The position numbers and the translations under genes are program-made. Shown here piece after piece: positions 27,371 through 44,214 of a DNA stretch of 64,000 nucleotides (positions are counted from its first letter, which is position 1; every line of letters begins with the position of its first letter). The stretch lies in assembly GCF_055900595.2 (NCBI RefSeq), contig NZ_CM148325.1. The stretch is one strand, 5' to 3'. Under the pieces are notes generated by a model. That model ran no database searches. It worked only from the letters and a program-made list of their open reading frames with translations, and was not told the DNA's origin.

Positions 27371-27829
27371 ATGGAAAATTATCTGATCGACAATCTGGAC
27401 CGTGGCATCCTGGAAGCATTAATGGGCAATGCGCGCACCGCTTACGCCGAACTGGCGAAACAATTTGGCGTCAGTCCGGGGACAATTCACGTTCGAGTAG
27501 AGAAAATGAAGCAGGCGGGGATCATTACCGGGGCACGTATTGATGTCAGCCCGAAGCAGCTCGGTTATGACGTAGGCTGCTTTATCGGCATTATATTAAA
27601 GAGCGCCAAAGACTATCCTTCCGCGCTGGCAAAGCTGGAAAGCCTCGATGAAGTCACTGAAGCCTATTACACAACTGGCCACTACAGCATCTTTATCAAA
27701 GTGATGTGCCGTTCGATCGATGCTCTCCAGCATGTACTTATCAACAAGATCCAAACAATTGATGAAATTCAGTCCACCGAGACATTGATCGTCCTGCAGA
27801 ACCCGATCATGCGTACCATCAAGCCCTGA
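27371..27829 (+). CDS. asnC: Lrp/AsnC-family transcriptional regulator (152 aa)
   Basis: N-terminal HTH and C-terminal regulatory domain typical of AsnC; synteny. Confidence 0.93.
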   Translation: MENYLIDNLDRGILEALMGNARTAYAELAKQFGVSPGTIHVRVEKMKQAGIITGARIDVSPKQLGYDVGCFIGIILKSAKDYPSALAKLESLDEVTEAYYTTGHYSIFIKVMCRSIDALQHVLINKIQTIDEIQSTETLIVLQNPIMRTIKP

Positions 27830-27918
27830 TCGGCTTTTTTAATCCCATACTTTTCCACAGGTAGATCCCAACGCGTTCACAGCGTACAATACGCCACTCT
27901 TAATAAAGGTGGCGGTTT

Positions 27919-28362
27919 ATGGCAGATATCACTCTTATCAGCGGCAGCACCCTCGGCGGTGCCGAATATGTAGCAGAACACCTGGCTGAAAAGCTGGAAG
28001 AGGCGGGTTTTACCACCGAAACGCTGCACGGTCCGCTGTTGGAAGATTTATCTGCCTCTGGGATCTGGCTGGTTATCAGCTCAACCCACGGTGCCGGAGA
28101 TATTCCGGACAACCTTTCTCCTTTCTATGAAGCATTGCAGGAACAGAAGCCCGATCTTTCTGCGGTCCGCTTTGGCGCAATCGGTATTGGTAGTCGTGAA
28201 TATGACACCTTTTGTGGGGCTATCGATAAACTCAAGGCAGAACTCAAAAATTCCGGTGCAAAACAGACAGGCGAAACACTGAAGATCAACATCCTTGATC
28301 ACGAAATTCCGGAAGATCCGGCAGAAGAATGGCTGGGATCGTGGATTAATTTACTCAAATAA
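27919..28362 (+). CDS. mioC: Flavodoxin-like FMN-binding protein MioC (147 aa)
   Basis: Flavodoxin signature (ISGSTLGGAEYVAE...); immediately flanks oriC. Confidence 0.92.
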   Translation: MADITLISGSTLGGAEYVAEHLAEKLEEAGFTTETLHGPLLEDLSASGIWLVISSTHGAGDIPDNLSPFYEALQEQKPDLSAVRFGAIGIGSREYDTFCGAIDKLKAELKNSGAKQTGETLKINILDHEIPEDPAEEWLGSWINLLK

Positions 28363-28384
28363 GTATACAGATCGTGCGATCTAC

Positions 28385-28640
28385 TGTGGATAACTCTGTC
28401 AGGAAGCTTGGATCAACCGGTAGTTATCCAAAGAACAACGGTTGTTCAGTTTTTGAGTTGTGTATAACCCCTCATTCTGATCCCAGCTTATACGGTCCAG
28501 GATCACCGATCATTCACAGTTAATGATCCTTTCCAGGTTGTTGATCTTAAAAGCCGGATCCTTGTTATCCACAGGGAAGTGCGATCCTAATAAGAGATCA
28601 CAATAGAACAGATCTCTAAATAAATAGATCTTCTTTTTAA
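28385..28640. other. Chromosomal replication origin oriC: DnaA boxes R4 to R1 plus three AT-rich 13-mers
   Basis: TGTGGATAA (R4, 28385-28393), TTATCCACA (R1, 28565-28573), 13-mers read on the minus strand as GATCTCTTATTAG, GATCTGTTCTATT and GATCTATTTATTT (28587-28630), and dense GATC sites; located between mioC and mnmG. Confidence 0.95.
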
Positions 28641-28740
28641 TACCCAGGATCCCAGGTCTTTCTCAAGCCGACAAAGTTGAGTAGAATCCACGGCCCGGGC
28701 TTCAATCCATTTTCATACCGCGTTATGCGAGGCAATCACC

Positions 28741-30630
28741 ATGTTTTATCCGGATCCTTTTGACGTCATCATCATTGGCGGGGGTCATGCAGGCACCGAG
28801 GCCGCGATGGCCGCGGCGCGTATGGGTCAACAGACTCTGCTTTTGACACACAATATCGACACGCTGGGGCAGATGAGCTGCAACCCGGCGATCGGCGGTA
28901 TTGGGAAGGGACATCTGGTAAAAGAAGTGGATGCACTCGGCGGTCTGATGGCGAAAGCGATCGATCAGGCGGGTATCCAGTTTAGGATACTAAACGCAAG
29001 CAAGGGACCGGCAGTTCGCGCTACCCGAGCTCAGGCGGATCGTGTGCTCTACCGTCAGGCAGTACGTACGGCGCTGGAGAATCAACCGAATCTGATGATC
29101 TTCCAGCAGGCGGTTGAAGATCTTATTGTCGAAAATGATCGCGTGGTCGGTGCTGTTACCCAAATGGGACTGAAGTTCCGTGCCAAAGCCGTCGTGCTCA
29201 CCGTTGGGACGTTCCTCGACGGTAAAATTCATATCGGTCTGGATAACTACAGCGGTGGCCGTGCTGGTGATCCGCCGTCCATTCCGCTCTCTCGCCGTTT
29301 GCGTGAACTGCCGCTGCGCGTTGGTCGTCTGAAAACCGGGACACCGCCGCGTATTGATGCGCGTACTATCGACTTCAGCGTGCTGGCGCAACAGCATGGC
29401 GATAACCCAATGCCGGTATTCTCGTTTATGGGCAATGCGTCCCAGCATCCACAGCAGGTGCCGTGTTATATCACTCATACCAACGAGAAAACCCATGATG
29501 TGATCCGCAGTAACCTCGATCGTAGCCCAATGTACGCAGGGGTGATCGAAGGTGTCGGCCCACGCTACTGTCCGTCGATCGAAGACAAAGTCATGCGCTT
29601 CGCCGACAGAAATCAGCATCAGATCTTCCTTGAACCGGAAGGGCTGACCTCTAACGAAATTTATCCGAACGGTATCTCCACCAGCCTGCCGTTCGATGTG
29701 CAGATGCAAATCGTCCGCTCCATGCAGGGGATGGAAAACGCGAAGATCGTGCGTCCGGGATATGCCATTGAGTATGACTTCTTCGATCCACGCGACCTGA
29801 AACCGACGCTGGAGAGCAAGTTTATCCAGGGGCTGTTCTTTGCTGGTCAGATTAACGGCACTACCGGTTATGAAGAAGCCGCTGCGCAAGGTTTGTTGGC
29901 CGGTCTTAACGCTGCCCGTCTGTCTGCTGACAAAGAAGGTTGGGCTCCGGCGCGTTCTCAGGCGTATCTCGGCGTACTGGTTGATGACCTGTGCACTTTA
30001 GGAACCAAAGAACCGTATCGTATGTTTACCTCGCGCGCAGAATATCGTCTGATGCTGCGCGAAGATAATGCGGATCTGCGTTTGACTGAAATTGGTCGTG
30101 AACTGGGCCTGGTGGATGACGAACGTTGGGCGCGCTTTAACGAGAAACTTGAGAATATCGAGCGTGAGCGTCAGCGTCTGAAATCGACCTGGGTAACCCC
30201 GTCGGCGGAAGCTGCAGCCGAAGTGAATGCTCACCTGACTGCGCCGCTTTCCCGTGAAGCCAGTGGTGAAGATCTGCTGCGTCGTCCGGAAATGACTTAT
30301 GAAAAATTAACCATGCTGACGCCGTTTGCCCCTGCGTTGACAGACGAACAGGCGGCGGAACAGGTTGAGATTCAGGTTAAATACGAAGGTTACATTGCGC
30401 GCCAGCAAGATGAGATCGAAAAGCAGCAGCGTAACGAGAATACCTTGCTGCCAGCGACGCTGGATTACCGCCAGGTATCCGGTCTTTCTAACGAAGTGAT
30501 CGCCAAACTTAACGATCACAAACCGGCTTCTATCGGTCAGGCTTCGCGTATTTCTGGCGTCACGCCTGCTGCCATCTCCATTCTGCTGGTGTGGCTAAAA
30601 AAACAGGGTATGCTGCGTCGTAGCGCATAA
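28741..30630 (+). CDS. mnmG: tRNA uridine 5-carboxymethylaminomethyl modification enzyme MnmG/GidA (629 aa)
   Basis: N-terminal FAD-binding motif [10 protein letters not shown]; synteny. Confidence 0.95.
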
Positions 30631-38872: not shown

Positions 38873-39171
38873 ACGCGTATTGACCCGTCCTGAAGAGCGT
38901 TCACATAGATCCTGCTGATATAAAACCCCCTGTTTCCCGTTTATTCATTGATCGAAATAAGAGCAAAAACATCCACCTGACGCTTAAATGAAGGTACTGC
39001 CTTAATTTTCTGCAGACAAAAGGCGTGACGATGGTCGAAAATGGCGCTTTCGTCAGAGGGGATAATCCGTTATTGAACAATTTATCCTCTGTCCATTTCA
39101 CGATGAAAAAAATGTAGTTTTTTCAAGGTGAAGCGGTTTAAATTCGTTCTCAAATTACAGTCAGGACGCGT

Positions 39172-42533: not shown

Positions 42534-42554
42534 TTTTCATCATTGATATAAAAG

Positions 42555-42578
42555 GGCTGCCGACGGGCGGCCTTTTTT
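42555..42578 (+). terminator. glmS terminator hairpin, which is also the canonical Tn7 attachment position (unoccupied here)
   Basis: GGCUGCC-GACG-GGCGGCC stem (one G-U pair) followed by six U, about 22 bp after the glmS stop. No Tn7 ends or tns genes follow. Confidence 0.75.
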
Positions 42579-42838
42579 ATAAAGTGTATCAACGGTTTAT
42601 TATTGATGCACAAATTAATATAAATATATTCTGAATTATTGGTGATGTCCTATTACGCACTTGATTTTTTACTGTTTTAATAATATTTATATAATAAATT
42701 TATATTTAATTTCGCATAATTAATATTATTTTTAGATAAAAATACCCCTTTGGTGTACTATGCCTCTGAATCATAAAATCACTTATTAATTTAAGTTATG
42801 ATTTAGACTGAAGGATATATTATATCAATGGAGTTTGT

Positions 42839-43411
42839 ATGAAACGTAATATTATTGGCGGTGCAATTACGCTGGCATCTTTAATGTTAGCCGGAAATGC
42901 ACTTGCAGAAGATGGCGTTGTTCACTTTGTCGGTGAAATTGTCGATAGCACATGCGAAGTGACTTCCGATACCGCCGATCAAACAGTACCTCTTGGTAAG
43001 GTCAGTAAAAGTGCGTTTTCAGGAGTAGGCAGCCTGGCGTCACCACAGCAATTTAGTATTAAACTGGAAAATTGCCCAGCAACCTATACTCAGGCAGCCG
43101 TCCGTTTCGATGGTACTGAAGCACCTGGCGGAGACGGTGACCTGAAAGTGGGTACACCGCTGACATCAGGTACACCTGGCGATTTTACCGGTACAGGACA
43201 AGCGATTGCGGCAACCGGCGTCGGTATTCGTATTTTTAACCGGGCGGATAATTCTCAGGTTAAACTTTATAACGACTCTGCTTATAGCACAATCGACGCT
43301 GACGGTAAGGCTGAAATGAAGTTTATTGCACGCTATGTTGCTACCAATGCGACCGTAACGGCGGGTACAGCAAACGCTGATTCACAATTCACCGTCGAAT
43401 ATAAGAAATAA
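42839..43411 (+). CDS. lpfA: Fimbrial major subunit, type 1 pilin family (190 aa), lpfA-like
   Basis: Signal peptide, then the pilin N-terminal motif FVGEIVDSTCEV with a conserved Cys pair; first gene of a chaperone-usher operon between glmS and pstS. The lpf name rests on this location plus family resemblance, not on an alignment. Confidence 0.7.
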   Translation: MKRNIIGGAITLASLMLAGNALAEDGVVHFVGEIVDSTCEVTSDTADQTVPLGKVSKSAFSGVGSLASPQQFSIKLENCPATYTQAAVRFDGTEAPGGDGDLKVGTPLTSGTPGDFTGTGQAIAATGVGIRIFNRADNSQVKLYNDSAYSTIDADGKAEMKFIARYVATNATVTAGTANADSQFTVEYKK

Positions 43412-43458
43412 TTAATACAGGGCCTTTTTATTCAGTTGGCTTTGGCCAGGGAGTCGTT

Positions 43459-44190
43459 ATGTCCAGAAAAAGTTGTTTAATTAGGCTCTTTAAAACAACA
43501 ATTTCGTGTAATTTATTGAGGATTATTATTCTAAGCATCTTTTTCCTCCAGCCGACATTGACCTGTGCAGGTGTTGTCATTGGCGGTACACGGGTTGTTT
43601 ATTTGAGTAATAATGCTGATAAATCTATTTCTGTATTTAGTAAGGAAGAAAAAATTCCTTATCTCATCCAGGCATGGGTGGATCCGTTTAATAAAGATGA
43701 TAAAACTAAAGCGCCATTTATTGTTATTCCTCCGGTATCACGGTTAGAACCCGCGCAAGAAAAAATATTACGTATTGTCCACACTAAAGGTTTGTCATTA
43801 CCAGATGATCGAGAGTCTGTCTTCTGGCTAAATATCAAAAATATTCCACCCTCTGCGAGCAGCAAAGAAGCGAACTCGCTGGAAATCGCCGTTAAAACGC
43901 GAATTAAGCTTTTCTGGAGACCGGCATCTATCCGCATGATTCCCGAAGATGCCGCACCAAAGGTGAAGTGGCATCGGGAAGGCCGAAATCTTATTGCTGA
44001 GAACCCTAACCCGATTCATATCAGCGTGATGGATGTCATTGTTGATGGCCATGATGTACCTCTTAACATGATCCGCCCTTTCGAGACGCTCACGTTACCG
44101 TTGCCTGCTAATTCTTCGGGTAGCCAAATGACCTGGCGATTTATTAATGATTACGGTGCGATAAGCGAACCATTAAAGCAAGCGTTGTAA
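43459..44190 (+). CDS. lpfB: Periplasmic pilus chaperone, PapD-like (243 aa)
   Basis: Signal peptide then AGVVIGGTRVVY, typical of chaperone-usher chaperones; operon context. Confidence 0.72.
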   Translation: MSRKSCLIRLFKTTISCNLLRIIILSIFFLQPTLTCAGVVIGGTRVVYLSNNADKSISVFSKEEKIPYLIQAWVDPFNKDDKTKAPFIVIPPVSRLEPAQEKILRIVHTKGLSLPDDRESVFWLNIKNIPPSASSKEANSLEIAVKTRIKLFWRPASIRMIPEDAAPKVKWHREGRNLIAENPNPIHISVMDVIVDGHDVPLNMIRPFETLTLPLPANSSGSQMTWRFINDYGAISEPLKQAL

Positions 44191-44214
44191 GCATTGCATA
44201 AGGATAGGCGAATT

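Follow-up and report, generated by a model that had tools for sequence, protein, structure and literature searches.

The closest described system is the chromosomal replication origin, oriC, of Escherichia coli K-12. Its DnaA boxes follow the consensus TTATnCACA, the boxes of its low-affinity arrays are 2-4 bp apart, box R2 is separated by 9 bp from box I2 and by 20 bp from box C3, and the minimal origin has 11 GATC sites (Katayama et al. 2017, PMC5742627). The 13-mers have the consensus GATCTnTTnTTTT; the TTGT and TTATT motifs are needed for single-strand binding by DnaA, and the AT cluster beside 13-mer L aids unwinding (PMC5742627). The length of the spacer between the duplex-unwinding element (DUE) and box R1 is strictly required for unwinding, which is impaired when 1 bp is inserted or 2 bp are deleted (PMC5716108).

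Here we describe positions 28385-28640 of a 64-kb stretch of DNA (hereafter, the window). Judged from its sequence, this region is an ordinary E. coli chromosomal oriC, an already known element that gives no new insight into replication initiation. It is almost certainly the functional chromosomal replication origin of an E. coli strain and would operate as in K-12; none of the analyses run gave evidence against this identity. The value of oriC for the window is that of a landmark. It sets the chromosomal position and orientation of the window, with the origin at 28.5 kb; the DNA on its left belongs to one replichore and the DNA on its right to the other. The distances of all other features of the window can be counted from this point. 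The origin also identifies the organism as E. coli, of a lineage close to strain E200086.

Elements of the origin and their arrangement

The origin lies between mioC and mnmG (gidA) and is reversed with respect to the K-12 convention. As a reference, we used the origin_of_replication feature of K-12 MG1655 (NC_000913.3 3925744-3925975), which aligned without indels with window positions 28399-28630, matching at 230 of 232 bases. In window coordinates, the classic 245-bp minimal oriC is 28386-28630. The region under study starts at the first base of box R4 (28385) and ends, at 28640, within the AT cluster, 10 bp past 13-mer L. An Rfam scan gave no match within oriC, as expected for a DNA element.

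The DnaA box consensus was scanned as the pattern TTATNCACA, which has seven matches in the 64 kb; three of them, boxes R4, R2 and R1, fall in 28385-28640, and boxes R3 and R5M were picked up once mismatches were allowed. The exact sequence TTATCCACA occurs in the 64 kb only as R1 and R4, which face in opposite directions at a distance of 172 bp. When one mismatch is allowed, the 256 bp of the origin contain four boxes, where the box density of the window predicts 0.12 (Poisson probability 8e-6, or about 2e-3 after correction). A search of the 64-kb window for a second origin or a rival DnaA-box cluster found no other 256-bp stretch with more than two boxes at this threshold. Window-wide, the number of boxes at this threshold is about double the expectation (30 versus 14.3 +/- 4.4), and this excess stays when the four boxes of oriC are left out. 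The following boxes and spacer were assigned, the low-affinity boxes being placed by the spacing rule together with their literature sequences.

28385-28393, minus strand: DnaA box R4, TTATCCACA, full match to the consensus; bounds the DnaA-oligomerisation region on the right; identical to K-12
28397-28405, minus strand: putative low-affinity box C1, right-half array
28408-28416, minus strand: putative low-affinity box I3, right-half array
28419-28427, minus strand: putative low-affinity box C2, right-half array
28424-28432, plus strand: classical DnaA box R3, TTATCCAAA; overlaps C2 and C3
28430-28438, minus strand: putative low-affinity box C3, right-half array
28439-28458, no strand: 20-bp spacer between R2 and C3; contains the Fis-binding consensus
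28459-28467, minus strand: DnaA box R2, TTATACACA; moderate affinity, middle region
28477-28485, plus strand: putative low-affinity box I2, left-half array
28488-28496, plus strand: putative low-affinity box I1, left-half array
28499-28507, plus strand: putative low-affinity box tau2, left-half array
28510-28518, plus strand: DnaA box R5M, TCATTCACA, left-half array
about 28521-28529, plus strand: putative low-affinity box tau1, left-half array
28565-28573, plus strand: DnaA box R1, TTATCCACA, full match to the consensus; bounds the DnaA-oligomerisation region on the left; opposite in orientation to R4

The gaps between boxes are 2-3 bp in the right-half array (28397-28438) and 2 bp in the left-half array (28477-28529). 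Both array stretches are identical to K-12, and thus the low-affinity boxes are necessarily retained. A literature search for printed sequences of the low-affinity boxes returned oligonucleotide tables only; therefore, the individual positions rest on the published spacing rule and on box sequences attributed to the primary literature. All spacings in the origin agree with the published values: 9 bp from R2 to I2, 20 bp from R2 to C3, and 13 bp from R1 to 13-mer R.

The remaining elements, with the 13-mers located by a consensus scan and the AT cluster read from the sequence, are as follows.

28534-28546, minus strand: core of the IHF-binding site, between R1 and R5M, GATCAACAACCTG; identical to K-12
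28574-28586, no strand: 13-bp spacer between R1 and 13-mer R; same length as in K-12
28587-28599, minus strand: 13-mer R
28602-28614, minus strand: 13-mer M
28618-28630, minus strand: 13-mer L
28631-28645, no strand: AT cluster flanking 13-mer L

The 13-mers R, M and L are arranged head to tail and adjoin R1, giving three matches in 44 bp versus 0.023 expected. In the 64-kb window as a whole, the 13-mer consensus with at most two mismatches has 33 matches versus 25.8 expected, with no overall enrichment, so that the distinctive feature is only the tandem triplet. The DUE formed by these repeats (28587-28630, minus strand) has intact TTGT and TTATT motifs, reaches 78% A+T in a 40-bp window, and ranks second among the least stable 45-bp duplexes of the 30-kb core region around it. 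AT-richness or duplex stability alone was rejected as a detector of the DUE; window-wide, the element falls in the least stable 1.4%, behind the low-GC islands.

The IHF consensus WATCAANNNNTTR with at most one mismatch has 60 matches in the 64-kb window versus 68 expected, none of them in oriC. Since the oriC site has two mismatches, a consensus scan is of no use for detecting it, and the site was placed by its identity to K-12.

GATC sites number 11 in 28385-28640 versus 1.16 expected (P about 4e-8); elsewhere in the window, the highest count in a stretch is seven. The GATC-dense zone (27715-28651) reaches well past the minimal origin, with seven sites in 27715-27864 (the end of asnC and the mioC promoter region), four in 28284-28340 (the end of mioC), two at 28370-28381 and one at 28648. 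The motif is also over-represented in the window as a whole (290 versus 238 +/- 14 expected).

In the initial annotation, this region was described as an oriC with DnaA boxes and three 13-mers between mioC and mnmG, and the formal motif scan found the arrangement of boxes and 13-mers; the coordinates originally given for the region hold to within a few bases. The gap-free match to the annotated K-12 feature, the GATC density, the minimum of the G-C skew and the single chromosomal copy (see below) all uphold this description. It had also been called expected rather than novel, which is right. All defining features of an E. coli-type oriC that are open to computational testing were found here.

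By analogy with K-12 biochemistry, we infer the following course of binding and unwinding at this origin: (i) DnaA would bind the consensus boxes R1 and R4 at the two ends, (ii) ATP-DnaA would fill R2 and the oppositely oriented arrays, tau1-R5M-tau2-I1-I2 on the R1 side and C1-I3-C2-C3 on the R4 side, (iii) IHF would bend the DNA between R1 and R5M, (iv) the AT-rich 13-mers at 28587-28630 would open, and their T-rich strand would be held by the DnaA molecules bound to R1 and R5M, and (v) two DnaB helicases would be loaded, and the forks would depart in both directions. After firing, the 11 GATC sites would let SeqA sequester the hemimethylated origin.

Chromosomal setting of oriC and dosage of the accessory islands

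The gene map of the window was taken from the colinear E200086 chromosome. To the left of oriC, it includes ilvD'EMG-ilvXL, yifB, maoP, hdfR, an rrnC-type rRNA operon, yieP, mdtD, rbsRKBCAD, kup, ravA-viaA, asnA, asnC and mioC; to the right, it includes mnmG, rsmG, atpIBEFHAGDC, glmUS, lpfABCD, pstSCAB-phoU, a three-gene low-GC island, yieH, adeP, yieF, yieE and yidZ'. The features next to the origin are listed below.

27851-27859: DnaA box TTTTCCACA in the mioC promoter region (asnC-mioC gap)
27919-28362, plus strand: mioC, 147-aa ORF; annotation transferred from E200086; reads towards oriC
28660-28687, plus strand: promoter-like site TTCTCA-16-TAGAAT upstream of mnmG/gidA, a consensus match only; reads away from oriC
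28741-30630, plus strand: mnmG (gidA), 629-aa ORF; annotation transferred from E200086; reads away from oriC

The box in the asnC-mioC gap lies in the known DnaA-regulated promoter region of mioC. The direction of mioC towards oriC and of the promoter-like site into mnmG away from it is the known K-12 arrangement. No terminator-like site was found between mioC and oriC in a promoter and terminator scan of 27750-28800, which was used descriptively only, because its site counts are at chance level.

The strand asymmetry of the window switches at oriC. Starting at the left end, the cumulative G-C skew declines until 28773, its minimum, which is 143 bp past the end of the 13-mers (28630), and then climbs; left of oriC, the skew is -0.053, and right of it, +0.051. 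Chi sites follow the same switch: of the 10 sites left of oriC, 8 are on the minus strand, and of the 8 sites on its right, 6 are on the plus strand (Fisher P = 0.054, on small numbers). KOPS motifs have the same trend in numbers too few to test. Highly expressed operons are directed away from oriC: those on its left, rrnC, rbs and ilv, run leftward, and those on its right, atp, glmUS and pst, run rightward. About 72% of the genes to the left and 83% of those to the right are co-directional with the forks.

Several other elements were noted in the window. The 17-bp maoS motif CTAATACTCCGCGCCAT (attributed to Valens et al. 2016), the cis site for organisation of the Ori macrodomain, has an exact copy at 6321-6337 (minus strand), between maoP and hdfR and about 22 kb from oriC, with 0.01 copies expected by chance. 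Apart from the rRNA and tRNA genes, Rfam matches, all on the minus strand, were obtained for the sRNA STnc410, antisense in the atpC-glmU gap (38931-39088), for the family 'Rev39 5'UTR' over the ilv leader region (3831-4120), and for StyR-44 in the 16S-23S spacer (10678-10786).

Two accessory islands are located to the right of oriC. The first is the lpfABCD operon for long polar fimbriae of the O113 type, which fills the glmS-pstS gap (42534-48062), a published site for lpf (PMC2608844). An lpf operon occupies this site in 1962 of the 5426 complete E. coli genomes; most copies are about 82-83% identical to the window allele, and 11 genomes match the lpf query at 99% or more. The lpf promoter region has 33% GC, and the stretch at about 42600-42800 upstream of lpfA is the least stable duplex in the window.

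The second island, of 7.4 kb and 31% GC, fills the phoU-yieH gap (52643-60061) and appears to carry EspX/EspY-type effectors. The K-12 genes that it replaces at this position are bgl and others. Its three large ORFs are the following.

53049-55568, plus strand: large ORF of the effector island
56038-57225, minus strand: large ORF of the effector island
57478-59925, plus strand: large ORF of the effector island

In relatives, ORFs of this island are annotated as a type III effector, a pentapeptide-repeat protein and EspY4, and weak Pfam matches to pentapeptide repeats were obtained for two of the three. The island was found in 1088 of the 5426 genomes, mostly at 84-90% identity and thus far more divergent than the flanking core; 13 genomes match it at 99% or more. 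A GC content of 31% is typical of H-NS-silenced DNA, and H-NS-type silencing of the islands is likely, since both are low in GC.

The initial annotation placed both islands within about 25 kb of the origin. Measured from the centre of oriC, this holds for the lpf island, at 14.0-19.6 kb; the effector island starts at about 25 kb and runs past that limit (24.1-31.5 kb). The islands are separated from oriC by 0.5-1.2% of the 2.59-Mb replichore, and therefore the Cooper-Helmstetter model gives both of them 98-99% of the oriC copy number. With C = 40 min and tau = 20 min, the modelled copy number of the islands is 4.0 times that of the terminus and 1.85 times the genome mean; at slow growth, it is 1.4 times that of the terminus. 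Thus the earlier suggestion that proximity to the origin could raise the dosage of the islands in fast growth follows from the model, but this predicted effect is generic and textbook, being equal for every gene in the window.

The closeness of the islands to oriC could nevertheless be functional, if multifork replication lifted the copy number and hence the expression of the lpf and effector genes and if selection kept them in position. The near-origin dosage given by the model would suit such a role, and so would the constant site of each island wherever it is present (PMC2608844 for lpf). We consider this unlikely. The dosage effect does not distinguish the islands from the other genes in the window, and in the reporter study of Bryant et al. 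dosage amounted to 1.4-fold, which is small beside local position effects, including silencing, of about 300-fold (PMC4191405). The composition of the effector island and of the lpf promoter region is that expected under H-NS silencing. Old insertions into two variable intergenic sites, passed on vertically, would account equally well for the fixed position.

Distribution of the origin, its substitutions and comparison with known strains

A megablast search with positions 28300-28760 found the origin in 5424 of the 5426 complete E. coli genomes. The median was a single place per genome; all matches were chromosomal, with none on plasmids, and the annotated mioC and mnmG genes adjoined them. 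Two genomes had no match, and about 20 had coverage below 80%. About 30 genomes had two match places; most likely, the start of a circular record cuts the match in two there, because several assemblies have oriC at their beginning (for example, matches at 23-278 and 349-809). The exact 256-bp allele of the window is present in 10 of the 5424 genomes, whose sources are dog, goat and humans; at least the next 50 genomes among the matches listed are one base off it.

Two positions of the window's oriC differ from K-12. Position 28440, in the R2-C3 spacer and two bases from C3, is G in the window and T in K-12; strains 55989 and IAI39 share the base of the window. Position 28577, in the spacer between R1 and 13-mer R and 4 bp from R1, is A in the window and C in K-12, 55989 and IAI39, and the A is rare. 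The allele with A at 28577 is the sole oriC of the 10 sequenced strains that carry it. Since this substitution leaves the spacer length unchanged and its carriers have no other oriC, it is probably a neutral lineage marker.

It is very unlikely that either the A at 28577 tunes origin opening or initiation timing in a small lineage, or the proximity of the origin gives the lpf and EspX/EspY islands a growth-rate-dependent dose relevant to colonisation. Taken by itself, the proposal that the substitution alters the behaviour of the origin, through unwinding efficiency or initiation timing, and thereby makes a functional oriC variant of the lineage could appeal to the rarity of the exact allele, to the C in all three reference strains and to its location close to R1 within the length-critical DUE-R1 spacer (PMC5716108). 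However, the published requirement concerns spacer length, and the change is a substitution rather than an indel that leaves the spacing, R1, the 13-mers and the TTGT and TTATT contacts intact; moreover, the carriers are viable with this allele as their only oriC. We therefore hold such an effect to be highly improbable, and the reading of 28577 as a neutral marker is preferred.

That the oriC of the window is a copy not serving as the origin of the chromosome, be it a cloned or minichromosome copy, an integrated duplicate or a relic, is hardly credible: we found no support for this reading, and against it stand the colinearity of the 64 kb with complete chromosomes, the single median place per genome with no plasmid matches, and the coincidence of the site with the skew minimum and the switch in Chi orientation.

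The oriC of K-12 MG1655 has the same flanking genes, transcription directions and length as that of the window, and its DnaA boxes, IHF site, three 13-mers, AT cluster and 11 GATC sites are the same in sequence and spacing, apart from which the window differs by the two substitutions at 28440 and 28577 and by being the reverse complement of the K-12 numbering. Strains 55989 and IAI39 are closer, with 255 of the 256 bases of 28385-28640 identical, including the base at 28440, and differ from the window by the C at 28577; just outside the minimal origin, IAI39 differs at 28382 and 55989 at 28653. Identity over 28385-28640 is 100% in E200086, E400634, E500002, E600003, 100117, 100248, AST85, Z0117EC0005, 2020CK-00188 and R32_14_1F. 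To the chromosome of E200086, isolated from human stool in Mali, the whole 64 kb is colinear and 99.91-99.97% identical, and both islands are included in this 99.9% identity; the fourth gene of the lpf operon carries a frameshift in the E200086 annotation, whereas the window has an intact ORF of 357 aa.
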